In this document: piece by piece, positions 8,555-24,419 of the stretch | Position numbering within the stretch: the stretch's first letter is position 1 | Layout: the number at the start of each line of letters is the position of its first letter | UHGV virus genome: UHGV-0097687 | Strand: one strand, 5' to 3' | DNA from: a virus | Length of the DNA stretch: 26,529 bases | The notes under the pieces: model-generated | Told to the model about the DNA's origin: nothing | Databases searched by the model: none | Seen by the model: the letters and a program-made list of their open reading frames with translations, nothing else | Translations under genes and position numbers: made by a program

Positions 8555-9454
8555 TTATGTCTGGATGTGGTCGTCAACACATCCTCTTTTAAATACAGGC
8601 GCTTTTACCTTAGTTGGATCATCTGTTTTAAAGATTTTCAATCGTTCACTGAAGAACATTACCTCAGATCCTTTGTACCGATCTTGAGCACTGTAGTTTA
8701 TTCCATATACTAATGATGATGTCTTATACATAGCTTGGATCTCAGGAGTGTTATCGTAAGAAACAATCCAAGGTGTTTTAATATTATTCTGTACGACTTT
8801 TGCAACCCTAACATGATCATCATGATCATAATGGTTGATATATAAACCTTTACCTTTTATGTAATAAGGTGGATCCAAATATGTTAATGAGTTTTGTGGC
8901 AATTGAGTAACTATTTTTTTAATGAAATCAATTGCATCCATGTTATATAAATCTATTCTGTGACGATTTTCTGATATTTTATGGATTCGAGAAATCAAAT
9001 CACTCTTATTATAGCGAGCGTCAAGCTTCCATTTCCCTTCTTGATTTTTACCGCCAATTACTCCACCTTTTAATATTCCAGAACGATTTGTTCTATTGAG
9101 AAAAAAGGTTGAGAAACCAATTGTTAAAAGATCATGGTCTTTAGGATTATTAATTATATCTTTCTGCCTAAACCATTCATCCATTGTAACTTCTGTTCTT
9201 TCAATTAAAGAACATAATTGATCTGCATGATTTAATACACTGTGCCAAAAAGCATAAACAGAAATATTAATATCATTAAGGATGATTTTTTCAGCTGCAT
9301 TTAGATGTAACAGTTTCAATGCTAAACCAGCACCCCCAGCATATGGTTCGGCATAATGTATAGGCGAAAGATTATTTTCTTCAATAATCCGAAGCATGAA
9401 ATTTGCAAGCTTGCCTTTACCGCCAGGATAGCGAAGTGGGGTGTTAAAACGCAT
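8555..9454 (-). CDS. Dam-family (alpha-class) N6-adenine DNA methyltransferase
   Basis: N-terminal PLRYPGGKGKL and EPYAGGAG (SAM-binding motifs comparable to E. coli Dam) and catalytic YLDPPYY; AGAGG RBS; AT-rich. Confidence 0.85.
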   Translation of the reverse strand: MRFNTPLRYPGGKGKLANFMLRIIEENNLSPIHYAEPYAGGAGLALKLLHLNAAEKIILNDINISVYAFWHSVLNHADQLCSLIERTEVTMDEWFRQKDIINNPKDHDLLTIGFSTFFLNRTNRSGILKGGVIGGKNQEGKWKLDARYNKSDLISRIHKISENRHRIDLYNMDAIDFIKKIVTQLPQNSLTYLDPPYYIKGKGLYINHYDHDDHVRVAKVVQNNIKTPWIVSYDNTPEIQAMYKTSSLVYGINYSAQDRYKGSEVMFFSERLKIFKTDDPTKVKAPVFKRGCVDDHIQT

Positions 9455-9488
9455 ATGATACCTCTAAATGTCAGATCTAAAGTATATC

Positions 9489-9528
9489 AAAAAAAGGGCT
9501 TTATGGCCATCACATAAAACCCTTTTTT
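9489..9528. repeat. Long near-perfect inverted repeat (about 16-bp stem, 7-nt loop) between the ATPase and methyltransferase genes
   Basis: AAAAAAGGGCTTTATG-GCCATCA-CATAAAACCCTTTTTT; on the minus-strand RNA the single mismatch is a G-U pair. Confidence 0.6.
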
Positions 9529-9534
9529 AATCAA

Positions 9535-11268
9535 TTAGTTATCTGACAGATATGATGAGATGGTAGCAGAATCGACACCATGTCCACTTATCATAATAAC
9601 TTTAAGACTCTTTATTAGTTCATTCTTGAAGCTATCCGATTGAACAGGATTTTTCTCGACCCAATATCGATATGGGTTATCTTTAACTCTTCCTTTGACT
9701 TGGGCCTGAAATTGAGTCGTATGTGCAAAATCTTTAAACAGTTTTCTAACTCTCCCTCCATGGTTTTTGTTAACTTTTTTATAATTATCTATAAGGATTT
9801 TTAAATCAATCGGAGCGTTACCAATCTTTAGCGTTGCAATTATGTCTTTAGCTGTTTTCATAAAAACAGCTTTTGTAAATTTATTTTTATTTTCCCAATA
9901 TGCATCATCAGGTGGTAAATTATATAAAAACTCAAAAATCATTTGGTCTGGAGGTAAGGTGCTTGGAAGCAAACATAAGTTTTTTTCTTTTTTGGCTTTT
10001 TTTGCATTAGCACTGTTGTCGTGAACAACATCACCGTCTAAGACGATCAAGCTTTTAGCTGTAAATTCTGGTATTTTTCTTGCCATTAAGTCAAGCATGG
10101 CAGAGCAGCTAATATTTATATTTCCTAATGGATTTAATATTTTATTTATTTTTCGATCTGTTATCAATTGTTTGAAAAAGTCGAAACCTTCTTTGTCTTC
10201 AAAATATACATTTGCCTTTGGAAGACAAATGTCATCATTAATTTTTACAGTTTCAACATGTAAATCAGCGTGGATATCTGTCCATGAAAGATTATTCTTT
10301 GTTTTAATATCTCCATATGTGTCTGTAAGATATATTGTTTTAAAGCTATCACTATCTTGTTTTGAACGATTATAGATATCCTCTATTATTAATGGAGAGT
10401 GCGAGGTCATGATTATTTGCAGATCGTATTGTTTTGCTGCTTTAGTTAGAATATTAATTAGCTCTAACTGTGCCGCAGGGAAAAGACCTGCATCGGCTTC
10501 ATCAATTAACAATATTCCGCCATGATAATCAGAATAAGTTTCCTTCAATCTTTTAAATGAAAAAATTGCCTGGATTAATTGTCCAACATTATCTTCACCA
10601 ACAGATACTGATTGGTGATCATAATTGTCACCATGGACAACCATTGAATCGATAGTACCTTTTGTTGCTGTTACTGAGCTTCCATTGTTTTTTAGTAAGA
10701 GTTGGTTACTCATCATTCTGATTTCATCAGAATTTTCATTGATGTACTGAACATCCCGTGTTGAGTAATCAGTCCTTAATGTAATAGGAAGAAGTCGTGC
10801 TAAGCTTAAAAAAATAACAGGATGAGTAACGTTTCTACTTTGGTTTTTTTCCGGTATTGAATCATTTCCCCTGACTACAGGCCTAGATTTATCTCTGTCA
10901 CTGTAGCTGTATAAACCTAATGTTAGTTTTTCAAGATGTTTGTTCGATGCACCATCATAGACACTAATTTTGACGTCCATTGAACCAGGAACATCAAATT
11001 GTTCTGAAAGCCTAAAATGTTCGCTGAAAGCTGACTTGAAGCTGCCATTTGTTAATGTTTTATATTGTGTTAAATCAGTCTCAGGGTTTTTGGTAAAGTC
11101 CTTTGTAAAGCTAAATATTTGGGCGATAATGCCAAGAATTGTGGATTTAGATGTGCCATTTTTACCACAAATAACAGTTAGGCGAGAACCAAACTCGATG
11201 TTTATATTTTTCAGTCCGCGAAACTTCACAACATTTATATTTTTTAGTTTGGTAATTTGATTTGCCAT
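9535..11268 (-). CDS. OLD-family ATP-dependent nuclease-like protein (N-terminal ABC-type ATPase, C-terminal Toprim-like domain)
   Basis: Start set at MANQITKLKNINVVKFRGL..; Walker A GKNGTSKST, Walker B/D-loop ILLIDEADAGL, H-loop MTSHSP; C-terminal ..FEDKEGFD.. and ..LIVLDGD.. resemble Toprim E and DxD motifs; 577 aa, similar in size to P2 Old and GajA. Confidence 0.72.
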   Translation of the reverse strand: MANQITKLKNINVVKFRGLKNINIEFGSRLTVICGKNGTSKSTILGIIAQIFSFTKDFTKNPETDLTQYKTLTNGSFKSAFSEHFRLSEQFDVPGSMDVKISVYDGASNKHLEKLTLGLYSYSDRDKSRPVVRGNDSIPEKNQSRNVTHPVIFLSLARLLPITLRTDYSTRDVQYINENSDEIRMMSNQLLLKNNGSSVTATKGTIDSMVVHGDNYDHQSVSVGEDNVGQLIQAIFSFKRLKETYSDYHGGILLIDEADAGLFPAAQLELINILTKAAKQYDLQIIMTSHSPLIIEDIYNRSKQDSDSFKTIYLTDTYGDIKTKNNLSWTDIHADLHVETVKINDDICLPKANVYFEDKEGFDFFKQLITDRKINKILNPLGNINISCSAMLDLMARKIPEFTAKSLIVLDGDVVHDNSANAKKAKKEKNLCLLPSTLPPDQMIFEFLYNLPPDDAYWENKNKFTKAVFMKTAKDIIATLKIGNAPIDLKILIDNYKKVNKNHGGRVRKLFKDFAHTTQFQAQVKGRVKDNPYRYWVEKNPVQSDSFKNELIKSLKVIMISGHGVDSATISSYLSDN

Positions 11269-11290
11269 GTTTCTATCTTGCTCCGTAAAA

Positions 11291-11309
11291 TGGCCACAAA
11301 TTGTGGCCA
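11291..11309. promoter_or_regulatory. Perfect palindrome TGGCCACAA-A-TTGTGGCCA between int stop and ATPase start (int terminator or operator)
   Basis: 9-bp perfect arms; on minus strand followed by ATTTTAC. Confidence 0.35.
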
Positions 11310-11326
11310 ATAGTTTCATGCTTGGA

Positions 11327-12493
11327 TTATATTGTTATCTTCTTCAAGCTTGTTTGTCCATCATATTCCTTCAGATATGAGCCATAGTGCCTGAAAAGCA
11401 TCTCCGGCCCTTTATGCCCCATTTGAGCTGCAAGCCAAAACAGGTTTGCTCCCCGGCTGATATGGCGGGTGGCGAATGTATGCCTGGTTTGATATGGATT
11501 TCTGTAACGAATACCTGCTTTTCGCAATGTTGGCACCCATGCTTTTTTCCTGATTGCATCAGCACTTGCCCAGGGCTTATTGGTCTTTGGATCTTCAAAG
11601 ACAGTAGCATCCTTCATGAATGTAAATGGCTTCTGATTTATCAGCGCCAACATTGCATCTTCTGTCAGTTCAACTTTACGAGTACCGGCTTTTGTCTTTG
11701 TTCCTTTGATAACACCGACAACACTTGCGCTCTGGACATGGGCAGTTTTTCCAACAAAGTCGATATCACGCCATCGAAGGGCACATAATTCAGAACTACG
11801 CAGGCCTGTATGTATAGCGAACCGGAACAGATTCTCCCATTGTTTGTTTCCGGCTGCTGTTAGTAATGCATCAACTTCTGCTGGTGATAGCGGATCAACC
11901 ACGTAGCTGCTTTCTGCTTCTGACTTATCACTTTGGTAGCGCGAAGCAGTTACCAACGATACGGGGTTAATTTGAAGTACCCCATCGGTTACGGCTTCAT
12001 CAAGTGCTGACCGCAGGAAAGATAACTGGTTGCGAATTGTTTTTAAGGTCGTTTTCTGGCTTTGAATCCACGCTTTCAGGATTGCTGGTGTTAATTCACT
12101 TGCAGGGCAAATGTGGAGTGAGGCTAACGCACTACGGCATTTTTTATAACCACCAATCGTAGAGGGTGAAAGTTTTCTCGTTTCGCAGATTTCAAGGTAT
12201 TCGTCCAGGTACATTTTTACCGTTTTGCCTGCAGCAGCATTACCAAAAATTTTCAAACGAGCAGAACGGGGAAAATATTCCGCATAAATGAATGTTCCCC
12301 TTTCGATCTTATTATGAATTTCGCCGAGTGTGCGCTCGGCGTATTTAATGTTCTTTGGTGTTACTTCCAGATTGGAAAGAGGCTCACGACATTTAACTCC
12401 TTTGTAGGTGAAAGTTATATTGATCGTTTCGCCCTGGCGGTGTTTCCTGATTGTTACGCCGCGCGGTAGTTTGAGCAGTTTTGTCTGGCCCAT
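11327..12493 (-). CDS. int: Tyrosine recombinase (phage integrase) with N-terminal arm-binding domain
   Basis: 388 aa; C-terminal catalytic motifs ..HTGLRSSEL.. and ..RHTFATRHISRGANLFWLAAQMGHKGPEMLFRHYGSYL (R..H..R..Y); start overlaps xis. Confidence 0.9.
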   Translation of the reverse strand: MGQTKLLKLPRGVTIRKHRQGETINITFTYKGVKCREPLSNLEVTPKNIKYAERTLGEIHNKIERGTFIYAEYFPRSARLKIFGNAAAGKTVKMYLDEYLEICETRKLSPSTIGGYKKCRSALASLHICPASELTPAILKAWIQSQKTTLKTIRNQLSFLRSALDEAVTDGVLQINPVSLVTASRYQSDKSEAESSYVVDPLSPAEVDALLTAAGNKQWENLFRFAIHTGLRSSELCALRWRDIDFVGKTAHVQSASVVGVIKGTKTKAGTRKVELTEDAMLALINQKPFTFMKDATVFEDPKTNKPWASADAIRKKAWVPTLRKAGIRYRNPYQTRHTFATRHISRGANLFWLAAQMGHKGPEMLFRHYGSYLKEYDGQTSLKKITI

Positions 12494-12672
12494 TTTGCAA
12501 CCTCACTAAGATCAATCCACCTCTCCTTAACGCCTTCAACCTTTAAAACCTGAACACCTTCACGCCAAACACCGCGCTGTACACGTTTGTTTATTGCTTC
12601 AGGAGTTTCGCCAGTTTCTTTGCAATAAGTTGAGATTGGAACGCAATCGAGGTTCAGCATATGTTTCTCCAC
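12454..12672 (-). CDS. xis: Excisionase-like DNA-binding protein
   Basis: 72 aa, directly upstream of and overlapping int; basic/aromatic small protein typical of Xis. Confidence 0.65.
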   Translation of the reverse strand: MEKHMLNLDCVPISTYCKETGETPEAINKRVQRGVWREGVQVLKVEGVKERWIDLSEVAKWARQNCSNYRAA

Positions 12673-12719
12673 TTAGCCCGCTGCACACGGGCAGTAATAT
12701 CAAATTCCAGTCCTGATAA

Positions 12720-12935
12720 TTAATTTTGTTCCCTGGTTGCTACCTGTTTTATTGGCCTGATGCTGTCCAGTAGCAGACGGCGACGCATGTTTGGTGCACC
12801 CCAACGGTAACCAGTCTTTTTGTCGTAGGATTCACAACGTCCGGCAACCCAGGACGTTTCAGTGGAATGTAATTTCATCCGCTTTTCACCGTCTCGGGTG
12901 ATAACAATTCCTGTATGAGTTTTTATCACGCTCAT
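12720..12935 (-). CDS. Hypothetical early-left protein
   Basis: 71 aa ORF; start overlaps stop of upstream gene (coupled). Confidence 0.45.
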   Translation of the reverse strand: MSVIKTHTGIVITRDGEKRMKLHSTETSWVAGRCESYDKKTGYRWGAPNMRRRLLLDSIRPIKQVATREQN

Positions 12936-13294
12936 TTCTTAGTCTCTGGTGCTTTCGGCATTACTGCCCAGTGAGTGATATTGACGTTTTCAAGGTCCCC
13001 GACCTGAAATGTCCACTGCCATTCTCCGGTTTCTTTTTGTTCCCAGGTGTACCAGAGAGAACGCCAGCCAATCAGCCAGCCTTCTCCGTTAGCATCAAAT
13101 AACAGAACACTTTCATTTGCTGGTGGCAGTTCAGCTGACACTGGTATTATTTTGTTTTCCAGTGCCGCACATTTAGCTTCAAGCGCGTCGAATTTACGTA
13201 CCAGGTACTCAGCATTTGTTTCGTTCACTTTCAGATCTCGCGGTACACATTTCCCGCGAAGAAACCCTTCCATTTCGAAAACATTCATGCGCAT
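12932..13294 (-). CDS. Hypothetical protein, YfdS-like (Trp-rich)
   Basis: 120 aa; ATG start; position and length match remembered CPS-53 prophage yfdS. Confidence 0.5.
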   Translation of the reverse strand: MRMNVFEMEGFLRGKCVPRDLKVNETNAEYLVRKFDALEAKCAALENKIIPVSAELPPANESVLLFDANGEGWLIGWRSLWYTWEQKETGEWQWTFQVGDLENVNITHWAVMPKAPETKK

Positions 13295-13821
13295 TTGCGT
13301 AACTCCGATAACTCGTTAAAACGTTCCATAAACATCCCGTAGGCGTGGCCCGGTGCCAGTGGAATCACGTTGAACATCTCTGTTGCCGGGATGCCTTCCA
13401 GTACAGGCCAGAAAGAGCCATCATCAAGCCCGAGATCACGGCGTTCGGTTGCCAGCATGATTAGATCGGCATATTTCACAGGCGTACTCATAACCGGGGG
13501 CAACTCGTATTTCTCACGGATTACTGCGTCTATTTTTTCTTCCATCCGTTTATAGTCAGGAAGAAGGCGTTTCAGTGGTGCGGGGATGTCCTGGCAATAC
13601 GCTTCTGTTGCATCATGCATTAACGCTTCAAAAGCAAATTCCTGCGGCACCAGCTGGCTGCAAAGCACCGCATGTTGGGCGACGCTGTAGAAGTGAGAAA
13701 GATGACCGGCAAAGCGGCAGATATTTGAAAGGGAAACCGCGATATCGTTAATCACGATGTCGTCTTTATTTATCTTGTCATAGTAAAAATGCTTCCCGGA
13801 AAAAGTTTTAATAAATGACAT
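13285..13821 (-). CDS. HD-domain phosphohydrolase (YfdR-like 5'-deoxynucleotidase)
   Basis: Start placed at ATG 13821 (GGAG RBS) giving 178 aa MSFIKTFSGKHFYYDK..; HD signature ..EALMHDATEAY..; longer ORF-track version begins at TTG. Confidence 0.7.
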   Translation of the reverse strand: MSFIKTFSGKHFYYDKINKDDIVINDIAVSLSNICRFAGHLSHFYSVAQHAVLCSQLVPQEFAFEALMHDATEAYCQDIPAPLKRLLPDYKRMEEKIDAVIREKYELPPVMSTPVKYADLIMLATERRDLGLDDGSFWPVLEGIPATEMFNVIPLAPGHAYGMFMERFNELSELRKCA

Positions 13822-13948
13822 TTTGTTCTCCACGTATATGCGCTGCACCGCGCTGAATTCGGGTAAAAGGAAGCCCTCGCCATCAGGCGATTGTTGAGTC
13901 AATTACGTTTCCATAAATGCCCCCGCAGGGGCATTTGCAGCAATGAAA

Positions 13949-14773
13949 TCAGGCGGTGAAAGTACCAATAAAGGTTTCTACTTTGCTGTCTTTGAATTTC
14001 TCAACAAGCAGATCACGAAATTCGTTAGCCATTTCTTCCTGGACTGCTTCCAACTGAATAATGCGCAGAACCAGTACAGGACGATCGCCAGTGATAATGC
14101 TGAGGCGTAATTTAAACGGACGTTCTTTCAGACCTTCAAACGGAACGCATTTAAATTCAAATGCCACTGGCATAATATCTTTGGTCTTCGCTTCGACAGA
14201 CTCCATCAGGGAGCGTTTTCCGCTGAAGTCATTATCTTCAAAATCAGCGGTCTGGTTTGCTTCAATCGTGATTTTACGGACAGCCGCAGCCGCTTTTGTT
14301 GCCTGAATAGCGTCACCATTAGCATCAAAGCCTACAAGGTAGTCGGCCCAGTCTTCAATCCATTCTGCCAGTGACTTCTGGGAGTTACGCTCGCCGTTAA
14401 CAGACAACAGAGCAGAGAACGGTGCTGTCTTTTTCAGTTTGAGAGTGGCGGTGTTATCTGCGTGACCTGGTTCATCAATAGTACCCAGGTTAAGCACACT
14501 GACGGCACGCATATTATCGGCATCAATAAAGCAGCGGGTGCCTTCATTTGCAAGATCTTTAGAATAACGGGTAAAGTCATCGATGCTGGCAGTGGAAAGC
14601 GCACCACGGAAACGGAAGCGATTTAAATTAAATTTTTCCAGATCATGAATGCGGAAGTTCTCAGGCAATGCCACAGCATCGGCACCAATCTTACTGATAA
14701 TTTCATTAACACCCTGAGCAGAAATAAGGGCATGGATTTGATTAATTGCGGTTGCGTCTAAGTTCTGAGACAT
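13949..14773 (-). CDS. Hypothetical protein, YfdQ-like (DUF2303-type)
   Basis: 274 aa; same length and position as remembered E. coli prophage YfdQ; assignment from memory. Confidence 0.55.
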
Positions 14774-14838
14774 AATAAGTCCTCACTATATAAAGATATT
14801 CAGTGATGAGATAAATAATCAGTTTATTAAAAACGATA

Positions 14839-15201
14839 TTAACGACCTGCTGCGCGGAGTTTTCCGTCAGGTTCACCGGCAAGAGTCAGTAATTGTCCCT
14901 GGTCTTCCTGCAGAATAGTCAGGCGACCACCGCGATTGACATACATCGGCGTTTCGGTGGTGTCTTCTTCGGAAATTTTCCCGCGGTTAGTCGGGCGAAC
15001 ATATGAGAGTTTGTGTTTGATTTTCACTCGGTTCTCATCAAACGGTTCGATTTCCAGATTGAGTGAGACCTTACCTTTGGTTTTCGTGTTCATCACACCG
15101 GAAGCGACTTCACTGAGAACTGCGCCGATTTTGGTTTCAAATACGCCGCCGTCCAGCTCCCCGATAAATGCCTGCACATCAGTACTGCGTTCGCTAGCCA
15201 T
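14839..15201 (-). CDS. Hypothetical protein, YfdP-like; first gene of leftward early operon
   Basis: Start placed at ATG 15201 with GAGGAG RBS (120 aa, MASERSTDVQAF..); upstream 60 codons of the tracked ORF lack RBS. Confidence 0.55.
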   Translation of the reverse strand: MASERSTDVQAFIGELDGGVFETKIGAVLSEVASGVMNTKTKGKVSLNLEIEPFDENRVKIKHKLSYVRPTNRGKISEEDTTETPMYVNRGGRLTILQEDQGQLLTLAGEPDGKLRAAGR

Positions 15202-15245
15202 TTTGCTGCTCCTCATCATATCGACCCTGCAAGGTCGGTTAGTTT

Positions 15246-15342
15246 CTCCACAAAACAGAGAAGAACACCTGCGGTGGCAGCCGCCCGGATGGATTGGGTT
15301 ATGAGCCCGTCGTCCGGTGATGCTCTTCTCTGTTTTGTAAAA
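15246..15342 (-). promoter_or_regulatory. Structured leader of early-left transcript (15-bp perfect inverted repeat enclosing a GC-rich roughly 60-nt insert)
   Basis: ACAAAACAGAGAAGA (15250-15264) pairs with TCTTCTCTGTTTTGT (15324-15338); lies between operator region and first early-left gene. Confidence 0.4.
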
Positions 15343-15543
15343 AGAGCGGTACCAGCCGGAAGCAAGTGTACAAACTGGTACCGCCAAAGCAGTGGCTGTT
15401 GTGGTGACCGGTGCTGATCTCCGGCTTGCGGTTATTTCAGACTCTCACGGGCGTTTAATTGCCCCGCCGAACAGCTCTTTTCCGCAATAGCTGCAATGTC
15501 TTTCGCGCATCAGCCTGCGCATTCACCACAACTCTAAAAACAA

Positions 15544-15596
15544 ATGTAGGATATCCAACATGTAGGTGTCAAGAGTTTATGTTGGTTATCCTACAT
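15544..15596. promoter_or_regulatory. Left operator region (OL) with two 18-bp repressor-type sites, presumed leftward early promoter
   Basis: ATGTAGGATATCCAACAT (15544-15561) and ATGTTGGTTATCCTACAT (15579-15596); same palindrome family recurs at OR. Confidence 0.6.
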
Positions 15597-15612
15597 AAAA
15601 AGATAGGCTCAT

Positions 15613-15638
15613 AAAAAAACCGGGGATACCCCGGTTTT
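15613..15638 (-). terminator. Bidirectional intrinsic terminator downstream of the repressor gene
   Basis: AAAAAAA-CCGGGG-ATA-CCCCGG-TTTT. Confidence 0.7.
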
Positions 15639-15658: not shown

Positions 15659-16303
15659 TCAAAAATCCATTATTACTTGTTTGACAAGACCAACTATTCT
15701 GCAGTTCTCACCGCATTCAATAGTTTTATAGTTAGGATTTAGTGGGACGAGATACCTGTTCGGCCAGTCCTCAACAAATTTTTTGAGTGTCGCTTCTTGC
15801 CCACCATTGATATGGGCAACAACGATTTTTCCGTTAATACACTCTGTATCAATAATATCTGGCTCTACGATAACGATAGAACCTTCTGGTATCGATGGTG
15901 AGCCGAGGGGATTGGTCATTGAATCACCACGGACCCGTAGTGCAAATGCCATTTCTGATACAAGGGCGGTAGTATAAACCCACTCTTCAGCATCTTCTTT
16001 CCTGACACCAGGCTCCGTCATTGTCCATGAACCCGCCTGAACCCACGAGATGAGGGGGACTTTTTTAACTGCGAATATTTCAGGTTTTAGATTTATCTTT
16101 GGTTCAGGCGAGCCTTTTCCGCTAACAAGCCACAGAGGATCGCATTTAAGTGCGTTGGCTAGGGCTTGAAGGTTGGCTCCATTTGGTTGGTAGTCGTCCT
16201 TTTCCCATCCAGTAACCGTGACACGGTTCACACCAGTCAAATCAGCCAGTGCTTGTTGTGTCAGGTTCAGTTCTTTTCGCCTTTGGCGAATACGATCACT
16301 CAT
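15659..16303 (-). CDS. cI: CI-type repressor (N-terminal HTH, C-terminal S24 LexA-like autopeptidase)
   Basis: HTH LNLTQQALADLTGVNRVTVTGWEK; Ala-Gly cleavage site (..VQAGSW..), catalytic Ser in ..GDSM.., Lys in ..LKKFV..; start uncertain among Met codons at 16312, 16309 and 16303 (possible leaderless mRNA). Confidence 0.85.
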   Translation of the reverse strand: MSDRIRQRRKELNLTQQALADLTGVNRVTVTGWEKDDYQPNGANLQALANALKCDPLWLVSGKGSPEPKINLKPEIFAVKKVPLISWVQAGSWTMTEPGVRKEDAEEWVYTTALVSEMAFALRVRGDSMTNPLGSPSIPEGSIVIVEPDIIDTECINGKIVVAHINGGQEATLKKFVEDWPNRYLVPLNPNYKTIECGENCRIVGLVKQVIMDF

Positions 16304-16310
16304 GTTCATC

Positions 16311-16374
16311 ATGTAGGCAATCCTACCACATGCCAATGTAGGATTCTTGACATTGGCATGTTGGATATCCTACA
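16311..16374. promoter_or_regulatory. Right operator region (OR) with three repressor-type sites between repressor and cro-like genes
   Basis: ATGTAGGCAATCCTACCACAT (16311-16331), ATGTAGGATTCTTGACAT (16335-16352), ATGTTGGATATCCTACAT (16357-16374); the third is the reverse complement of the OL site. Confidence 0.6.
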
Positions 16375-17217: not shown

Positions 17218-17392
17218 ACAGTTTAACAACACACTACCGTCGCTCGCAACTGATTGCGCTTCCTGTACCGGGTGGAAAAGCGAAGGTGGAGTATTGCTAT
17301 GCAGTGAATGTACCAGGTGACAGGGAAATTGTAACCCACAGCTTTGCAGAGTGGGCTGTGGGTGATTTCAACCGGCAGAAGGAGACAGTCCT

Positions 17393-17605
17393 TTGCGACA
17401 AGTTAACCGCTGGTTCAAAGATCACTACGGAGTGCCCGTCAGAGTCATTCGTTGGGAGCCGGAAACACAACGGGTTATCTACCTCCGTGAAGGCTATGAA
17501 CATGAATGCTTCAGTCCGCTCGAACAGTTTCGTCGTAAATTCAGGGAAATAGAGGTCGGTCATGAGCCTGTTAATGACATCCCAGCCCATTGTGATAAAT
17601 CGTGA
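17393..17605 (+). CDS. Hypothetical protein (TTG start)
   Basis: GGAGACAG RBS 8 nt upstream of TTG; 70 aa; competes with overlapping ORF 17214-17552 in another frame. Confidence 0.4.
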
Positions 17606-18554
17606 TCTTGCATGCCGTATTGGTCTGAATGAGGCAATTGTGTTGCAGCAGCTTCATTACTGGCTGAATGAAACGAATTCAGGCACTGAGCATGGCGGAA
17701 TTCGCTGGGTTTATAACACGACAGAACAGTGGCTGGAGCAGTTTCCGTTCTGGTCAGAGTCCACTCTGAAACGCACATTTGCAAGCCTGAAATCACTTGG
17801 GGTTTTGCGTCGCGAGCAACTCAATAAATCGAAGCGTGACATGACCAACTTCTACACGATCAACTATGAAAGTGAGCTTTTAGAAGAGGTCAAAGTGAAC
17901 GAATCCATCAGGTCAAAATGCACTTCTCCATCGGGTCAAAGTGACCTGATGGATGGGCGCAAAATGACACGATCCATTGGTTCAAAACGACACGCTGTCA
18001 TCGGGTCAAAATGGCCCAATGATCTTACAGAGAATACAACAGAGATTACTACAGAGAATAAAACCTCTTCTCGTCCGGACGCTTCGCAACCGGACACGCA
18101 AACGGCTGAACAGGAGTTTTTAACTCGCCATCCTGATGCGGTTGTATTCAGCCCTAAAAAGCGCCAGTGGGGAACGCAGGATGATTTGACCTGCGCACAG
18201 TGGCTCTGGAAAAAAATCATCGCCCTGTACGAGCAGGCCGCCGAATGTGACGGCGAGGTGGTTCGTCCCAAAGAACCGAACTGGACAGCATGGGCAAACG
18301 AAATTCGCCTGATGTGTGTGCAGGATGGTCGTACTCACAAACAAATCTGCGAGATGTACAGCCGCGTCAGCCGCGATCCGTTCTGGTGCCGTAACGTGCT
18401 CAGCCCGTCGAAGTTGCGGGAAAAATGGGATGAGCTTTCCCTGCGCTTATCGCCGTCCGTCAGCACGCACACAGAAAAACGTGAAGACCCGTACTTCAAA
18501 GCCAGTTACGACAACGTGGACTACAGCCAGATCCCGGCAGGATTCAGGGGGTGA
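17562..18554 (+). CDS. Replication initiation protein (O-like replisome organiser) containing the origin iterons
   Basis: GAGG RBS; N-terminal ..[29 protein letters not shown].. winged-helix-like; iterons embedded in the coding sequence as in lambda O. Confidence 0.75.
   Translation: MSLLMTSQPIVINRDLACRIGLNEAIVLQQLHYWLNETNSGTEHGGIRWVYNTTEQWLEQFPFWSESTLKRTFASLKSLGVLRREQLNKSKRDMTNFYTINYESELLEEVKVNESIRSKCTSPSGQSDLMDGRKMTRSIGSKRHAVIGSKWPNDLTENTTEITTENKTSSRPDASQPDTQTAEQEFLTRHPDAVVFSPKKRQWGTQDDLTCAQWLWKKIIALYEQAAECDGEVVRPKEPNWTAWANEIRLMCVQDGRTHKQICEMYSRVSRDPFWCRNVLSPSKLREKWDELSLRLSPSVSTHTEKREDPYFKASYDNVDYSQIPAGFRG
17885..18065. repeat. Candidate origin of replication: five iterons (consensus about CATCGGGTCAAAATG) plus adjacent A-rich ACAGAGA(A/T)TA repeats
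   Basis: Iteron copies at about 17887, 17906, 17929, 17975 and 17999; A-rich repeated segment 18020-18065. Confidence 0.65.
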
Positions 18555-18648
18555 TCATGAGTCTGTTAAATGACGTTCAGAAATTCATTGAAGCCCATCC
18601 GGGCTGTACTTCCGGAGACATTGCGGATGCTTTTTACGTGGGGGCTTA

Positions 18649-19302
18649 ATGAGTAATAAATATTGCCAGGCGCTGGTAGAACTGCGGAACAAACCAGCCC
18701 ATGAACTGAAGGAAGTGGGCGATCAGTGGCGCACGCCGGACAACATTTTCTGGGGAATTAACACCTTGTTTGGTCCGTTTGTTCTGGATCTGTTCACTGA
18801 CGGTGATAACGCCAAATGTGCCGCGTATTACACGGCGGAAGACAACGCGCTGGCGCATGACTGGTCAGAACGTCTTGCGGAGCTTAAAGGTGCTGCCTTT
18901 GGTAATCCCCCATACAGCCGCGCCAGTCAGCATGAGGGGCAATACATCACCGGCATGCGTTACATCATGAAACATGCCAGTGCCATGCGTGATAAGGGCG
19001 GGCGCTATGTTTTCCTGATCAAAGCTGCCACCAGCGAAGTGTGGTGGCCGGAAGATGCGGACCATATTGCTTTTATTCGCGGGCGTATTGGTTTTGAACT
19101 GCCTGCCTGGTTTATCCCGAAGGATGAGAAGCAGGTGCCGACAGGCGCTTTCTTCGCTGGTGCTATTGCTGTTTTCGACAAGACCTGGAAGGGACCGGCA
19201 ATCAGCTACATCGGGCGCGATGAACTTGAGGCATGTGGTGAGGCGTTTCTGGCGCAGGTTCGCCAGCAGGCAGAAAAACTTGTCAGGGAGATGGCGGCAT
19301 GA
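18649..19302 (+). CDS. Phage Dam-type N6-adenine DNA methyltransferase (small NPPY class)
   Basis: 217 aa; catalytic ..AFGNPPYS..; typical location in lambdoid early-right region. Confidence 0.8.
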   Translation: MSNKYCQALVELRNKPAHELKEVGDQWRTPDNIFWGINTLFGPFVLDLFTDGDNAKCAAYYTAEDNALAHDWSERLAELKGAAFGNPPYSRASQHEGQYITGMRYIMKHASAMRDKGGRYVFLIKAATSEVWWPEDADHIAFIRGRIGFELPAWFIPKDEKQVPTGAFFAGAIAVFDKTWKGPAISYIGRDELEACGEAFLAQVRQQAEKLVREMAA

Positions 19303-19625
19303 CGACGTTAACTCAATGCCAGCAGCAGGTGCTGGATATGCTGATTTCTTACCAGCAAGAGCGTGGCTTTCCGCCAACCAATCAGGAGGTGGCAACCATG
19401 CTGGGATACCGTTCGGTGAATGCAGCGGTGGAGCATCTTCGCGCACTGGAGAAAAAAGGCGTCATCACGATAAAGCGTGGCGTGGCCCGGGGGATAACGC
19501 TTCATACCGCAGTGAAGGACGACGACAGCGAAGCGGTCGGTATCATCCGCGCACTGCTTGCCGGTGAGGAGAACGCCAGGCTGCGTGCAGCCCACTGGTT
19601 ACATGAGAGGGGCCTGAAAGTATGA
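19299..19625 (+). CDS. LexA-like N-terminal DNA-binding domain protein
   Basis: 108 aa; ..QQVLDMLISYQQERGFPPTNQEVATMLGYRSVNAAVEHLRALEKKGVI.. resembles LexA winged helix; ATGA coupling. Confidence 0.6.
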   Translation: MTTLTQCQQQVLDMLISYQQERGFPPTNQEVATMLGYRSVNAAVEHLRALEKKGVITIKRGVARGITLHTAVKDDDSEAVGIIRALLAGEENARLRAAHWLHERGLKV

Positions 19626-20011
19626 AGTTGATCCTGCCTTTCCCGCCCAGTGTGAACACGTACTGGCGACACCCCAACAAAGGGGCATTTGCTGGTAAGA
19701 GCCTGATAAGCGAGGCGGGGCGAAAATTTCAGAGCGCGGCGTGCGCAGCAATAGTTGAGCAGTTACGTCGTCTGCCGAAACCAACGTCGGCACCTGCTTC
19801 AGTGGAGATCGTGTTGTTTCCTCCGGATAACCGGATCCGCGATCTGGACAACTATAACAAGGCGCTGTTTGACGCCCTGACCCACGCGGGTGTGTGGGAA
19901 GACGACAGACAGGTGAAAAGAATGCTGGTGGAGTGGGGACCGGTTATCCCGAAAGGGAAGGTCGAGATCACTATCAGTAAGTATGAGAAACCGGCGGGTG
20001 CAGCCGCCTGA
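19622..20011 (+). CDS. rusA: Holliday junction resolvase RusA
   Basis: 129 aa; ..PPSVNTYWRH.., ..RDLDNYNKALFDALTHAGVWEDDRQV.. match RusA signature. Confidence 0.85.
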   Translation: MKLILPFPPSVNTYWRHPNKGAFAGKSLISEAGRKFQSAACAAIVEQLRRLPKPTSAPASVEIVLFPPDNRIRDLDNYNKALFDALTHAGVWEDDRQVKRMLVEWGPVIPKGKVEITISKYEKPAGAAA

Positions 20012-20030
20012 TTAAGAGGAGAAACGAAGT

Positions 20031-20840
20031 ATGAATAATCTGATGGTCATTGATGGTATTGAAGTTCGTCGTGATGCTTATGGGCGTTACAGCCTGAACG
20101 ATCTGCATCGCGCAGCAGTAGCATCTGGTGCAAATGCCAGAACCAAGGAGCCAGGAAAGTTTCTTTCCAGCCAACAAACTGTTGAGCTTGTTCATGAATT
20201 GACCAACACCCAGAATTTGGGTGTTGACCCGGTGAGTGTGATTCATGGGGGAAATGAACGGGGAACGTATGTCTGCAAGGAACTGGTGTATGCCTATGCA
20301 ATGTGGATCAGCCCGTCATTCCATCTGAAGGTGATCCGTACTTTCGACATGGTAACCAGCGCACCGGAAAAATTATCCGGACAGGCTGCTGACAAGATGC
20401 AGGCTGGTGTGATTCTGCTGGACTTTATGCGCCGGGAATTAAACCTGTCTAACTCTTCAGTGCTTGGTGCCTGTCAGAAACTCCAGGAGGCTGTTGGCTT
20501 ACCGAATCTGGCACCGCGCTATGCCATTGATGCTCCTGCTGACGCGCCTGATGGCTCAAGTCGTCCTACGCTGTCGCTGAGTGCACTGCTGAAACAGTAT
20601 GGTATCCGCCTTACGGCTAATCAGGCATATCACCAGATGGCGAAGCTGGGGATCGTTGAACAACGCGAACGATACAGCCGTACCGCGATTAACAACATCA
20701 AAAAATTCTGGTCGCTGACAGCGAAAGGTTGCATGTTCGGCAAGAACATCACCAGTCCCGCAAATCCGCGCGAGACGCAGCCGCATTTCTTCGAATCCCG
20801 ATTCCCTGAGCTGTTAAAGCTGCTCGATACCGTTCATTGA
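20031..20840 (+). CDS. KilA-N domain-containing protein
   Basis: Strong RBS GAGGAGAAACGAAGTATG; N-terminal ..MVIDGIEVRRDAYGRYSLNDLHRAA.. KilA-N-like. Confidence 0.65.
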   Translation: MNNLMVIDGIEVRRDAYGRYSLNDLHRAAVASGANARTKEPGKFLSSQQTVELVHELTNTQNLGVDPVSVIHGGNERGTYVCKELVYAYAMWISPSFHLKVIRTFDMVTSAPEKLSGQAADKMQAGVILLDFMRRELNLSNSSVLGACQKLQEAVGLPNLAPRYAIDAPADAPDGSSRPTLSLSALLKQYGIRLTANQAYHQMAKLGIVEQRERYSRTAINNIKKFWSLTAKGCMFGKNITSPANPRETQPHFFESRFPELLKLLDTVH

Positions 20841-20841
20841 G

Positions 20842-21837
20842 GTGACCGTGAGAGCACTACTGACCCCTGAAATTGCCCCGCGTATGGGGATCGTATTGTT
20901 CAGGCCAGGTTCAGAGCTGATGCCCCTGTTTATGCAGGGGCGTGTCCTGCTGGAGCCTGAGCCGGAACGTTATTCATCTTTCGCCAGTGGTGCCGTTCCG
21001 GCGGCATCACAACCGCTGGCGGATGATCCTGCCGTTCGGGCCGTGTTCCGCAATGAGGAAGTGATCCGTCGTGCTGGTGGCGTGGAATGTCTTGAAAGCT
21101 GGTTACTTCGTGAAAAAGGCTGCCAGTGGCCTCATTCCGACTGGCACAGCGAGAACATGACAACAATGCGACACGCGCCGGGCGCAATCCGTCTGTGCTG
21201 GCACTGCGATAACCAGCTGCGCGATCAGTTCACGGAACGGCTGGAATCAATGGCAACGGATAACTGTGCCCGCTGGGTGTTGTCTGTTGTGCGTCGGGAT
21301 CTCGGTTTTGATGACAGTCACGTTGTGACAATGCCGGAACTGTGCTGGTGGCTGATTCGTAATGACTTGGCGGATGCCTTACCGGAAAGTGCAGCCCGTA
21401 AGGCACTGAGATTACCGAAGCCTGTTGTGCCGTCTGTCACCCGGGAAAGTGACCTTGTGCCTTCGGTTCCTGCCACCAGCATCATCCAGGATAAGGCGAA
21501 AAAGGTGCTGGCGCTGAAAGTGGATCCGGAGTCGCCGGAGTCTTTTATGTTACGCCCAAAACGTCGCCGCTGGGTTAATGAAAAGTACACACGCTGGGTT
21601 AAGACACAGCCGTGTGCATGTTGTGGAAAGCCTGCTGATGATCCCCACCACCTGATAGGCCACGGTCAGGGGGGAATGGGTACAAAAGCGCATGACCTCT
21701 TTGTGTTGCCTTTGTGCAGAAAGCATCACGACGAGCTGCATGCGGATACCGTGGCATTTGAAGAGAAGTATGGCTCCCAGCTGGAGCTGATATTTCGTTT
21801 TATCGATCGTGCGCTGGCAATTGGCGTGCTGGCCTGA
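20842..21837 (+). CDS. DUF968-type prophage protein with C-terminal Cys/His cluster
   Basis: 331 aa; ..[28 protein letters not shown].. metal-binding-like; start (GTG 20842 or downstream ATG) uncertain. Confidence 0.6.
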
Positions 21838-21854
21838 TTTTGTGGAGAACGTTG

Positions 21855-22220
21855 ATGCGTGATATTCAAATGGTTCTTGAACGTTGGGGGGCATGGGTGG
21901 CAAATAATCACGAGGATGTCACCTGGTCGTCTATTGCTGCAGGATTTAAAGGACTAATCCCTTCAAAAGTAAAATCCCGCCCGCAATGTTGTGACGATGA
22001 TGCGATGATCATTTGTGGGTGCATGGCTCGCCTGAAAAAGAACAACAGCGATTTGCACGATTTATTAGTGGATTATTATGTAGGTGGTATGACGTTTATG
22101 GCGCTTGCCCGTAAACATGGGCGTTCTGATTGCTGGGTTGGGCGTTTATTGCAAAAGGCTGAAGGTGTAGTTGATGGCATGTTAATGATGTTAGAAATTG
22201 AGCTAGAGATGGATCGTTAG
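21855..22220 (+). CDS. Q: Late-gene antiterminator Q
   Basis: [42 protein letters not shown].. matches remembered Q of Stx-type lambdoid phages; Cys-rich zinc-binding-like motif. Confidence 0.78.
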
Positions 22221-22262
22221 AAGACCTCTTATTGAGGGGGTAATTGAATCAGTTTAATGTGT

Positions 22263-22293
22263 GGGGAGTCGATTTATTCTCCCCATTTTATTT
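22263..22293 (+). terminator. Intrinsic terminator just downstream of Q
   Basis: GGGGAG-10 nt-CTCCCC followed by ATTTTATTT. Confidence 0.5.
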
Positions 22294-22304
22294 AATTAAT
22301 TTAC

Positions 22305-22751
22305 TTAAGGTTTTAATTCATCAAGACGTTGTTGGATAGTGTTTTTGCTTGCGTTGTCTGTTATAGCCATTTGTTGTACTTGCCCCATTGCCATTTGAGT
22401 TTCCATCCACATATCGGCCCACACTTTTGTATCGTTATTAACTTGAGCGATAGTAAATCTGACTTTTGATACCGGGGTTGTTGAATAGGCATTGCCGATT
22501 AACATTTGTCCAAAAACAGCAGACCCGCCTTCCAGTTCTTTACCACATATAACACTGCTGTTATCAGCGTTGTAAATTATCAACCCTCTACTATTGCAGT
22601 AATTCACAAGGGCATCTTTGACTTTATCTTTTGTCGTATTTTGATAAACCCCCTCAGGTTTTCCTGATTGAGTTTTTTTTATCAATGGTACGGAAGAAGT
22701 ACAACCTGAAATGATAGTTGCGCTAAGTAATAGTACAGTCATTTTATTCAT
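22305..22751 (-). CDS. Lipoprotein moron of unknown function (opposite strand, AT-rich)
   Basis: 148 aa; signal peptide with lipobox ..LLSATIISGC; low GC relative to flanks. Confidence 0.6.
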   Translation of the reverse strand: MNKMTVLLLSATIISGCTSSVPLIKKTQSGKPEGVYQNTTKDKVKDALVNYCNSRGLIIYNADNSSVICGKELEGGSAVFGQMLIGNAYSTTPVSKVRFTIAQVNNDTKVWADMWMETQMAMGQVQQMAITDNASKNTIQQRLDELKP

Positions 22752-22875
22752 GTTTCTTATCCATTGTTAAGGGCATACCTACACAATTATTTTTATTGGA
22801 GATGAATAATCAACCGTTTACAATCGTAAAAAATCAAATATGCTGTTAAGAGTGGTTACTTCGCCACACAACTTA

Positions 22876-22899
22876 AACCCGCCGCTGAGCGGTTTTTTT
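22876..22899 (+). terminator. Intrinsic terminator (candidate tR'-type target of Q antitermination)
   Basis: CCGC-TGA-GCGG hairpin followed by TTTTTTT; possible promoter TTTACA-16-TATGCT about 60 nt upstream. Confidence 0.4.
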
Positions 22900-22997
22900 G
22901 TACCTGTAAACTTGGTGCAGTACAGTAAACACGCTGGTGGTCGTGAATACTGACCTTTTATCTTGCTGGCTTTTTAGACAAGAGTTATTGGTATGTC

Positions 22998-23216
22998 ATG
23001 TTAACCAGAAGGGAAAAAGACATGCTAAAACAGCAAGATATGACAGAAACCGCCGCCGCAGTCCTTCATTTCTTACCTGCTGACAAGTGGGTAACGCCAC
23101 GCATGATGACGAGAACTACCGGAGTAAGCGAAGCCCGGTGCCAGTTAATACTGACTCAGTTAGTTCTGGCGGGTCTGGCGAAGGATAACGGGAATAAATT
23201 CAGACGCTGCCAGTAA
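22998..23216 (+). CDS. Hypothetical small protein
   Basis: 72 aa ORF; start ambiguous (22998 or 23022). Confidence 0.4.
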   Translation: MLTRREKDMLKQQDMTETAAAVLHFLPADKWVTPRMMTRTTGVSEARCQLILTQLVLAGLAKDNGNKFRRCQ

Positions 23217-23366
23217 TGGCGGTTTCCTGCTGTGAAAATGGGCGGCTGGTGGGTGTTGGTAGCACCTGCCAGCCATTCGCTCATGCTTACTGGTCACAAG
23301 CGAACCACGGCCCACTGCTTTAGCGCAAAAGCAGAGTGAGCCTACCAGAGTTACGCTTACTGATCC

Positions 23367-24419
23367 ATGAAAAATACTGTAAAAATAAACAGTGTTGATT
23401 TAATCAACGCTGATTGCCTGCATTTTATTCAGTCCCTGCCTGATGATTCCATTGACCTGATTGTTACCGATCCGCCGTACTTCAAGGTGAAACCCAACGG
23501 TTGGGACAATCAGTGGAAAGGGGACGAAGATTACCTTAAGTGGCTGGACCACTGTCTGGCCCAGTTCTGGCGGGTGTTAAAACCTGCCGGAAGCCTTTAC
23601 CTGTTCTGTGGGCATCGCCTGGCATCTGATATTGAGATCATGATGCGTGAACGTTTCAACGTGCTTAACCATATCATCTGGGCGAAGCCGTCCGGACGTT
23701 GGAATGGGTGTAATAAAGAAAGTCTGCGCGCATATTTTCCTGCCACAGAGCGCGTTCTGTTTGCTGAACATTACCAGGGGCCATATCGCGGCAAAAGTGA
23801 CGGCTATGCGGCAAAAGAAAGGGAACTCAAACAGCACATAATGGCACCGCTGATATCGTATTTCAGGGATGCTCGTGCCGAACTGGGTATAACGGCAAAA
23901 CAAATTGCCGAAGCCACAGGTAAGAAAAATATGGTTTCCCACTGGTTTGGTGCCAGTCAGTGGCAGTTGCCGAATGAGGCTGACTATCGGAAGTTACAGG
24001 CACTGTTTTCCCGTATAGCGGCAGAGAAGTTTCAGGAACAACAACTGGAACAACCACACCACCAGCTGGTGGCATCTTATGATTCACTGAATCGCAAATA
24101 TTCTGAATTGCTGGATGAGTTTAAATCTCTCCGGCGCTATTTCTCCGTATCAGTCTCCGTGCCTTATACCGATGTCTGGATGCATAAACCCGTTCAGTTC
24201 TACCCGGGTAAACATCCGTGTGAGAAACCGGCGGATATGCTCAGGCAAATAATCAATGCCAGTAGTCGACCTGGTGATCTGGTTGCTGATTTTTTTATGG
24301 GATCCGGTTCCACAATAAAAGCAGCAATGGCGCTGGGGCGTCGGGCCTTAGGTGTTGAGCTTGAGTCAGAGCGGTTTAACCAGACAGTGAAAGAGATAAA
24401 CGAGCTGGTGGGGAAATAA
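23367..24419 (+). CDS. DNA methyltransferase, N6/N4 (beta-class, DPPY motif near N-terminus)
   Basis: 350 aa; ..[10 protein letters not shown].. catalytic motif early, SAM-binding ..DFFMGSGST.. late. Confidence 0.85.

Follow-up and report, generated by a model that had tools for sequence, protein, structure and literature searches.

A lambdoid coliphage with three adenine methyltransferases: two solitary enzymes and the likely modification half of a mobile cassette related to PD-lambda-5

Why would a single phage carry three DNA methyltransferase genes, and are they the unrelated orphans, maintained for layered anti-restriction or epigenetic regulation, that an earlier note on this DNA took them to be? 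The stretch analysed here (the window; 26,529 nt) comes from a lambda-like (lambdoid, mEp460/cdtI-like) temperate phage of Escherichia coli. The three open reading frames lie where the note had placed them, at 8555-9454 on the minus strand (MTase1) and at 18649-19302 and 23367-24419 on the plus strand (MTase2 and MTase3), and they match three different Pfam families (PF02086, PF05869 and PF01555, respectively), all well over threshold. Catalytic death, which would have undercut the original reading, is not observed: the motifs are intact in MTase1, MTase2 and MTase3, and all three genes encode intact N6-adenine methyltransferases. When the three proteins were compared by BLASTP, similarity was confined to a short stretch around the DPPY motif (the best pair, MTase1 and MTase3, reached an E-value of 0.001 over 57 residues); and since there is no likeness beyond this stretch, calling them unrelated is fair at the family level. 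The exact protein sequences of all three are already present in public data.

Two of these genes lie on the right-hand side of the window, among the following features:

18649..19302, plus strand: MTase2, small phage N6-adenine methyltransferase, 217 aa (PF05869, TIGR01712)
21840..22220, plus strand: antiterminator Q (Pfam Phage_antitermQ, 173 bits)
23367..24419, plus strand: MTase3, beta-class N6-adenine methyltransferase of the M.EcoGII clade, 350 aa (PF01555, identity to M.EcoGII)
24424..24702, plus strand: holin, directly downstream of MTase3 (Pfam Phage_holin_2_1, 119.5 bits)

MTase2 scores 156 bits against the Pfam Dam model PF05869 (cut-off 28.1) and 255.6 bits against the NCBIfam equivalog TIGR01712 (cut-off 97.05), and it has an NPPY motif at residue 86. 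T1 Dam and HP1 Dam, which methylate GATC, are members of the PF05869/TIGR01712 family, and MTase2 shares with the phage Dam family (these two enzymes and M.EcoVT2Dam) both the NPPY motif and scores above the two family thresholds. The VT2-Sakai enzyme M.EcoVT2Dam, listed as a GATC enzyme (PMC6602927, Table 3), belongs to the same Pfam family and has the same position in the nin region, but its identity to MTase2 is only 31%; the two are therefore not the same enzyme, and a GATC specificity for MTase2 would be an extrapolation. GATC occurs 85 times in the window against about 102-111 expected, which is no informative depletion. Many lambdoid and Stx phages encode MTase2 at 99.5-100% identity. 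The gene is part of the rightward early operon, in its nin-like region, where its neighbours (a replication O-like protein, a LexA-like protein matching LexA_DNA_bind, RusA and KilA-N) are otherwise assigned, leaving no adjacent cognate endonuclease of the Type II restriction-modification kind. Four genes away, at 20842-21837, is a DUF968/HNH-like gene that is common in lambdoid phages (phrog_96).

MTase3 scores 145.9 bits against PF01555 (N6_N4_Mtase; cut-off 26.7), and its motifs, DPPY at residue 35 and FMGSG at 310, stand in the beta-class order. It is 100% identical to the methylase of phage cdtI and, over its full length, identical at 281 of 349 residues (81%) to M.EcoGII, whose sequence we took from the supplement of PMC11551740. 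M.EcoGII is a characterised non-specific adenine methylase of a prophage, silent in the lysogen (PMC5778455); it and M.EcoGI, which shares this lack of specificity, come from prophages of E. coli O104:H4. MTase3 resembles M.EcoGII in its layout (DPPY, TRD, FxGxG), its length (350 vs. 349 aa) and its carriage by a lambdoid prophage, but 19% of the residues differ; non-specific activity of the MTase3 allele is predicted by homology. M.EcoGIX, which was also considered as a relative, is plasmid-borne and was discarded, the true relative being M.EcoGII. The gene is positioned between Q and the holin, hence in the late region; the neighbours other than these two are phrog_3152 and phrog_331 (both annotated 'unknown function'), and here too no cognate Type II endonuclease is adjacent, the neighbours being otherwise assigned.

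Because mEp460 and cdtI already carry both MTase2 and MTase3, this combination is ordinary, and most of the three-methylase finding is likewise ordinary, two of the enzymes being routine in lambdoid and Stx phages. The anti-restriction reading suits this pair, for which no nuclease-like partner is present and one of which belongs to the M.EcoGII clade. They would act as solitary self-protection enzymes, probably expressed alongside the lytic programme. By homology, MTase3 would methylate adenines largely or wholly regardless of sequence context, and this could render progeny DNA resistant to many restriction enzymes that are sensitive to adenine methylation.

The orphan claim, which holds for MTase2 and MTase3, fails for MTase1, the downstream gene of a two-gene cassette. 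The relevant features are:

8296..8482, minus strand: attP region, the stretch common to both prophage junctions
8304-8327: terminator-like hairpin within the attP region (terminator scan)
about 8450-8482, minus strand: copy of the 3' end of ssrA (tmRNA), within the attP region (comparison with lysogens)
8555..9454, minus strand: MTase1, alpha-class (D12) N6-adenine methyltransferase, 299 aa (PF02086, PD-Lambda-5_B)
9535..11268, minus strand: ABC-type ATPase with a probable C-terminal Toprim-like domain, 577 aa (presumed effector)
11327..12493, minus strand: tyrosine integrase (Pfam Arm-DNA-bind_2, Phage_integrase, Phage_int_SAM_5)

MTase1 had been described as a Dam-family, alpha-class enzyme. 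Its class is borne out by a match of 70.9 bits to PF02086 (MethyltransfD12; cut-off 22) that covers profile positions 1-245 of 253, but its score against the NCBIfam 'dam' model TIGR00571 is 56.6 bits, below the cut-off of 114.85, and the name Dam is therefore not warranted. The motif EPYAGGAG is found near residue 36 and DPPY at 194, and PLRYPGGK, EPxxGG and DPPY are unchanging across 15 homologues. Judged by its profile match to PADLOC PD-Lambda-5_B (PDLC04018; E-value 2e-124, residues 1-282), MTase1 belongs to the methylase family of the PD-lambda-5 defence system. In hundreds of E. coli genomes, among them those of ST131 strains such as JJ1886, the gene is entered as a 'DNA adenine methylase'.

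The upstream gene of the cassette, which the earlier note had called OLD-like, is real: its open reading frame spans 9535-11319, and translation probably begins at 11268, giving 577 aa, although the start could lie as far out as 11319. Of 80 genomes, drawn from several phyla, 78 have an MTase1 homologue beside a homologue of this ATPase; since the other two loci stop at a contig edge, the genes are paired in all 78 assessable loci, usually on the same strand and 41-130 nt apart. MTase1 is thus no orphan, but the conserved operon partner of the ABC ATPase, and the note's fallback idea, that this methylase is coupled to the OLD-like protein, is the part that the obligate pairing supports.

The N-terminal portion of the partner is an ABC-type ATPase (AAA_15/AAA_21), which is a trait of the OLD family, and its best fold matches include the heads of SMC, Rad50 and RecF. 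Its C-terminal domain returned no sequence match in Pfam, PADLOC, NCBIfam or PDB, and no significant Foldseek match against PDB; neither the Pfam Toprim model nor DUF4435 matched the protein, its C-terminal 255 aa matched no PADLOC model, and its hhalign alignment to P2 Old was confined to the ATPase part, in the Walker B region. PADLOC matches to AriA (residues 208-312, E-value 3e-17) and AriAB (residues 24-85) are partial, and the full-length AriA with AriB/DUF4435 that would denote PARIS is lacking. Against the MADS MAD3 ATPase (NCBIfam NF047739) it scores 31.2 bits, in the P-loop region only, where 420 are required. The protein corresponds to phrog_3940, annotated 'unknown function', and has no full-length match to any PADLOC system component. 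What follow-up adds, then, is a catalogued 'DNA adenine methylase' tied to an ATPase-nuclease-like partner to which current annotation libraries give no function; methylome studies would otherwise score MTase1 as a silent orphan.

Several known systems invite comparison. OLD proteins are classed by genomic context: those of Class 1 stand alone, whereas Class 2 is accompanied by a UvrD-like helicase, Class 3 by a retron and Class 4 by GajB. Our comparison set comprised P2 Old and Class 1, UvrD-linked Class 2, retron-associated OLD and Gabija GajA, together with AriA/AriB, and the cassette differs from the described OLD classes in that the conserved neighbour, in every assessable locus, is a D12 DNA methyltransferase in place of a class-defining context. 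Its likeness to Type III restriction-modification (Mod plus Res) is an analogy of logic alone: a methylase capable of standing alone is joined to an NTP-dependent, nuclease-like partner, and the analogy is based on the fact that this partner was never found without the methylase at any assessable locus. Res is an SF2 helicase with a PD-(D/E)xK nuclease, to which the cassette ATPase is not homologous, and a specificity subunit is absent. Nor is the partner homologous to PrrC, the ABC-like ATPase-nuclease that is linked to a modification enzyme in PrrC/EcoprrI. The term 'methyltransferase' appears nowhere in the OLD review PMC10568477, and in the incomplete literature collection that we searched, no description of a system combining an OLD-like protein with a methylase was found.

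The closest parallel is with PD-lambda-5, a validated anti-phage defence system consisting of a ParB/HEPN protein and a methyltransferase (Vassallo et al. 2022, Nat Microbiol; PMC9519451), which is also catalogued in PADLOC and DefenseFinder. Like PD-lambda-5, the cassette has two genes, is carried by prophages, and joins a methylase of the same family to a protein with an NTP-binding-type domain and a nuclease-type domain, the latter probable in the cassette. Unlike PD-lambda-5, it has no ParB/HEPN A component (about 470-530 aa) but a 577-aa ABC ATPase: the methylase component (PD-Lambda-5_B) is present without an adjacent PD-Lambda-5_A, which is absent among the listed matches of the full-length ATPase and of its middle segment, whereas true PD-Lambda-5_A neighbours in other loci match at 1e-90 to 1e-190. 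In viral contigs, one of these two effector-like neighbours, ParB/HEPN or the OLD-like ATPase, accompanies the MTase1 family in 52 of 60 loci, and both pairings interchange on closely related methylases. Two related prophages (L124 and L126) display a clean partner swap, the exchange proceeds without co-variation of the methylase, and both partner types can flank a single methylase.

The cassette is also mobile. The pair occupies differing positions in different prophages and moves as a unit; in the window it lies between int and attP, with the integrase directly upstream on the same strand. The cassette has about 33-38% G+C and the phage about 50%, which identifies the pair as an accessory insertion, and it is absent from the close relatives mEp460 and cdtI. 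A promoter scan around the cassette performed no better than on shuffled sequence. A 570-aa gene at 5850-7562 was considered as a third member and rejected, because it lies across attP, and hence at the opposite end of the prophage, about 40 kb away, and is absent from the conserved neighbourhoods.

It is likely, in our judgement, that this phage combines two solitary lytic-phase methylases with MTase1 as the modification half of a mobile defence cassette related to PD-lambda-5. The cassette itself is most likely an undescribed variant of that anti-phage system, a partner-swapped relative in which a putative OLD-like NTPase-nuclease has replaced the ParB/HEPN effector. Under such a scheme, MTase1 would mark resident DNA in the lysogen, the putative ATPase-nuclease would serve as the effector against incoming phage, cleaving either DNA or RNA, and the methylase would render the effector tolerable or direct it, by analogy with restriction-modification or Type III systems.

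If the three enzymes were instead independent anti-restriction or epigenetic orphans, and the ATPase an exclusion gene like P2 Old that acts alone and has nothing to do with MTase1, the lack of a recognisable classical restriction-endonuclease fold beside any of the three genes, on which the earlier note was correct, would be expected. Class 1 OLD proteins do act alone, and the methylases of E. coli prophages, most of which are listed as orphans, are in many cases silent in the lysogen (PMC4659465). However, such independence is improbable given an adjacency that spans phyla at all 78 assessable loci, a pair that travels as a unit among prophage positions, and viral methylase loci of which 52 in 60 have one of two effector-like neighbours, one such pairing being a validated defence system (PMC9519451). 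The placement of the cassette on the int strand, with int immediately to one side and attP to the other, together with the SMC, Rad50 and RecF heads among the fold matches of the ATPase, might suggest that it serves the phage's own life cycle, through methylation-dependent control of integration, excision or replication and an SMC/RecF-like DNA-handling factor. But in other prophages the cassette is distant from int, either adjoining the repressor or, on the opposite strand, between Q and the holin, and its absence from close relatives and its deviating G+C content also make this explanation hardly credible.

A guard or abortive-infection cassette deserves more weight, although we regard it as doubtful. 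In this model the ATPase-Toprim protein would be a latent RNase or tRNase (compare AriB and P2 Old), restrained by or monitoring the methylase, much as PrrC is held by EcoprrI; interference by a phage with methylation or restriction functions, or a delivered trigger, would fire it and kill the cell, and methylation would be either the activity under guard and nothing more, or a first line of defence in its own right. The HEPN and Toprim families have tRNA-cleaving defence members (PMC11464382, PMC12445682, PMC12409363), and the exchange of partners without co-variation, along with the flanking of one methylase by both, fits effectors that need no matched DNA specificity. Weighing against this model, the methylase family keeps its catalytic residues unchanged throughout, and the need for a host deleted for mrr indicates that the PD-lambda-5 methylase evidently works in uninfected cells; both features argue that methylation is constitutive and under selection, as in restriction-modification. 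In addition, there is no known trigger, and the ATPase is not PARIS by profile, its AriA and AriAB matches being partial only.

Beyond the preferred reading of the cassette as a partner-swapped PD-lambda-5 relative, a broader proposition, to which we give slightly less than even chances, is that the ABC-ATPase/Toprim-like protein and D12 methylase form a distinct, widespread and unnamed anti-phage system, a methylase-coupled OLD-like class. The PD-lambda-5 methylase would then be a hub wired to interchangeable NTPase-nuclease effectors (ParB/HEPN, ABC/Toprim, sometimes both), which would imply that target recognition or licensing comes from the methylase, whatever the kind of effector. If the pair is a defence system, PD-lambda-5 gains a second effector type, OLD-like proteins gain a methylase-linked branch, and the L124/L126 swap provides natural material for studying how a methylase may control two unrelated effectors.

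The integration site of this coliphage is ssrA, and the gene order in the window (tail fibre, att, int) is that of the excised form. The window's matches to E. coli genomes fall into two sets, which overlap at positions 8296/8303-8482, and the two prophage junctions were read in lysogens, the ssrA side in L002 and the other side in L003. No tmRNA or tRNA was detected in the window by ARAGORN, nor by Rfam at gathering thresholds. The attP region consists of the copy of the ssrA 3' end and about 150 nt downstream of it, and comparison with lysogens was the sole means by which this ssrA-derived fragment could be detected.

The earlier note had described three unrelated orphan DNA methyltransferases in this phage genome, the first perhaps coupled to an OLD-like nuclease. 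The three open reading frames are indeed present, each scores above the Pfam gathering threshold of its own, different family, and all three retain their catalytic motifs:

8555-9454, minus strand: MTase1, PF02086 (D12 class), motifs EPYAGGAG and DPPY
18649-19302, plus strand: MTase2, PF05869 (phage Dam family), motif NPPY
23367-24419, plus strand: MTase3, PF01555 (N6_N4), motifs DPPY near the N-terminus and FMGSG near the C-terminus
9535-11268, minus strand: OLD-like ABC ATPase, upstream of MTase1

Pairwise BLASTP among the methylases returned only a weak match around DPPY, and the exact proteins are all common in public collections. The description as orphans holds for MTase2 and MTase3, which are orphans of an ordinary type, but fails for MTase1, which is coupled to the OLD-like protein. 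The possession of three methylases is in itself ordinary, and it is the cassette formed by the ATPase and MTase1, together with the swapping of its partners, that merits experiment.

The window covers part of a temperate, lambdoid coliphage. Blocks of 95-98% identity link it to mEp460, cdtI and several Stx phages, and its genes are ordered as follows:

2534-4603: tail fibre, first in the gene order
Between tail fibre and integrase: accessory stretch of low GC (33-40% G+C, vs. about 50% in the rest of the window)
11327-12493, minus strand: integrase, then early-left genes
15659-16336: repressor, then a cII-like gene
17562-18554: replication O-like gene, then a nin-like region
21840-22220: Q, 3' of the nin-like region
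24424-24702: holin, then lysozyme

MTase2, which is adjoined by replication and nin-type genes, is of an already known kind: With 255.6 bits vs. a cut-off of 97.05, it passes as the NCBIfam equivalog ‘phage N-6-adenine-methyltransferase’, and dozens of lambdoid and Stx phages have copies that are 99.5-100% identical. M.EcoVT2Dam, a characterised GATC enzyme (PMC6602927), belongs to the same Pfam family yet is only 31% identical to MTase2, so that GATC is a reasonable guess, and not a result, for the target of MTase2. Four genes downstream lies a gene (20842-21837, plus strand) for a DUF968 protein that has a marginal HNHc_6 match (26.9 bits vs. a cut-off of 26.6) and is named ‘HNH endonuclease’ in PHROGs (phrog_96); it is a common lambdoid gene, and we did not count it as a cognate nuclease.

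MTase3, too, is of a known kind and sits where such enzymes usually do. It is identical (100%) to the methylase of phage cdtI and, over its full length, 81% identical to M.EcoGII (reference sequence from the supplement of PMC11551740), a characterised non-specific adenine methyltransferase that is prophage-encoded, silent in the lysogen and harmful under constitutive expression, and that blocks many restriction enzymes (PMC5778455). The position of the MTase3 gene, 3' of Q and immediately followed by the holin, fits expression during lytic growth only, judging from lambdoid gene organisation. Because phage mEp460_4F5 has both MTase2 and MTase3 at positions corresponding to those in the window, the two can be regarded as standard for this phage group. 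Between Q and MTase3, a low-GC pocket (39% G+C) contains a 148-aa gene (22305-22751, minus strand; phrog_3152, function unassigned) that looks like a moron; the corresponding place in mEp460_4F5 is taken by a different minus-strand gene, of 308 aa.

MTase1 matches PD-Lambda-5_B, the PADLOC profile for the methylase part of the anti-phage defence system PD-lambda-5, with an E-value of 2e-124; since it falls below the NCBIfam cut-off for Dam (56.6 bits vs. 114.85), the name Dam is not warranted. PD-lambda-5, which was discovered in E. coli through functional selection, pairs a ParB/HEPN protein with a methyltransferase, affected nearly all phages tested, required a host lacking mrr for its cloning, and is viewed by its authors as the compact form that an ‘RM+Abi’ system takes in a prophage (PMC9519451). 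Although the methylase family is common to both, the window cassette lacks one defining feature of that system, the ParB/HEPN component, and has instead an ABC ATPase upstream of MTase1.

An alignment of ATPase homologues, scanned against one genome per GTDB species, yielded 80 ATPase loci (42-88% identity) from Proteobacteria, Bacteroidota, Mycobacterium, Listeria and Acidobacteria. A homologue of MTase1 is present in 78 of these, usually 41-130 nt downstream and on the same strand, and in the other two the sequence ends 4 and 104 nt past the ATPase match. This conserved linkage supports the fallback idea of the earlier note, that the first methylase is coupled to the OLD-like protein. The cassette adjoins int in the window, in Citrobacter phage phiNP and in Streptococcus phage Javan645 (in which the ATPase is only 25% identical), adjoins the repressor in P. 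aeruginosa, lies on the opposite strand between Q and the holin in Yersinia, has its gene order reversed in a Halomonas contig, and is missing from close relatives of the window phage. Such varied position and absence from close relatives, combined with conserved pairing, are characteristic of a mobile accessory cassette with mutually dependent genes. The literature that we searched, the coverage of which was incomplete, held no description of this ATPase and methylase pairing. Three cassette-bearing prophages of Yersinia enterocolitica (L011-L013) carry several DNA-modification functions each, as they also have a gene of the Mom family (PF25680) and one of 686 aa that matches DNA_methylase faintly.

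The methylase, for its part, has more than one kind of partner. Among 60 IMG/VR loci recovered with a methylase alignment at 38% identity or more, the ATPase adjoins the methylase in 21 and a neighbour of 470-530 aa does so in 31; representatives of these neighbours, when scanned, matched PD-Lambda-5_A, the profile for the ParB/HEPN part, with E-values of 1e-90 to 1e-190. Methylases with one partner type are interspersed with those of the other on a rough neighbour-joining tree, for which parsimony requires at least about 10 partner changes. Three loci illustrate the exchange:

L124, IMG/VR contig, prophage, 3214-5843: methylase with upstream ABC ATPase
L126, IMG/VR contig, prophage, 3503-5825: methylase with upstream PD-Lambda-5_A
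L005, Vibrio phage ValB1MD-2, 2452-6470: one methylase between both partner types

L124 and L126 come from related prophages with flanks that are 75-78% identical and methylase genes that are 87% identical, whereas the ATPase gene of one and the PD-Lambda-5_A gene of the other have no DNA similarity: This is a natural effector swap. In ValB1MD-2, the upstream PD-Lambda-5_A is broken into two ORFs, which cover positions 4-238 and 250-502 of the 503-position profile, and the ABC ATPase lies downstream of the methylase in convergent orientation.

The window ATPase (577 aa; ABC type, AAA_15/AAA_21) belongs to a phage protein family of ‘unknown function’ (phrog_3940), and its C-terminal 255 residues have no match in PADLOC, Pfam or NCBIfam. 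The residues of Walker A, Walker B and the H-loop do not vary across 28 homologues, and neither do E357, D358, D411 and D413. In the predicted structure of the C-terminal 258 residues (pLDDT 90), a Glu-Asp follows one strand and a DxD another, arranged as in Toprim domains. A Foldseek search with this domain gave nothing significant, its profile had no match among PDB sequences, and hhalign of the ATPase with P2 Old aligned nothing beyond the Walker B region. In the window protein, the retron I-B ‘ATPase-Toprim’ profile of PADLOC spans the region (residues 258-452, E = 9.7e-14); with the 45%-identical homologue in L124 it aligns end to end, and we consider a Toprim-like nuclease domain likely but not established. 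None of the described OLD classes fits the cassette by gene context, and by profile it is a member of neither PARIS nor MADS.

The two genes are thus obligately linked and move as a cassette, both proteins keep intact, conserved catalytic residues, and the methylase is kin to that of a validated defence system and has interchanged two partners of the NTPase-plus-nuclease type. We consider it probable that the cassette acts in coupled defence, as a prophage-borne module in which the methylase would mark resident DNA and the ATPase-nuclease would be the effector. We lean, modestly, to a restriction-like mode of action: The effector would attack DNA that lacks the mark, and the methylase may recruit or license the effector, as happens in Type III systems. 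This would accord with the asymmetry that the effector never occurs without the methylase, with the invariance of the methylase active site, and with the need of PD-lambda-5 for a host lacking mrr, which implies that its methylase is constitutively active. The effector could instead have an abortive or guard function, as a latent RNase or tRNase, which would accord with the free exchange of partners and with the tRNase activity reported for AriB and P2 Old (PMC11464382, PMC12445682, PMC12409363); we favour this less than restriction-like action.

Two sets of E. coli chromosomes have matches to the accessory stretch: One matches window positions 5200-8482 and continues into ssrA and smpB, and the second matches from 8296 or 8303 to 11330 and continues into host genes (ypjA or glaH, for example). 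Their overlap places the attachment region at about 8296-8482, inside the window, which is therefore in excised (attP) order. On the minus strand, this region contains a copy of the 3' end of ssrA followed by a strong terminator-like hairpin (8304-8327). A 41-kb IMG/VR contig carries a methylase and an ATPase that are 99% identical to those of the window.

A prophage of E. coli MS21324 (L002, an ssrA-side junction) is 99.8% identical, and two 5-nt stretches that it has are missing from the window, which may reflect real variation or errors of assembly. Absence of AACCA (about 5851) frameshifts a 672-aa ORF into ORFs of 570 aa (5850-7562) and 77 aa (5525-5758); TCCAC (about 8455) is lost from the ssrA-derived ...GCCAGCTCCACCA end within the att copy. 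The large low-GC protein encoded at 5850-7562 (minus strand; 570 aa here vs. 672 aa in MS21324) lies beside the att site, on the tail-fibre side of the prophage. Searches of Pfam, PADLOC and NCBIfam gave no match to it and PHROGs a single weak one, and it is possibly the product of a further accessory or defence gene. The tail-fibre segment (window 1-5200) has only 6 GATC sites vs. about 20 expected from its length, though these are small numbers, and the GATC count outside this segment is near expectation.
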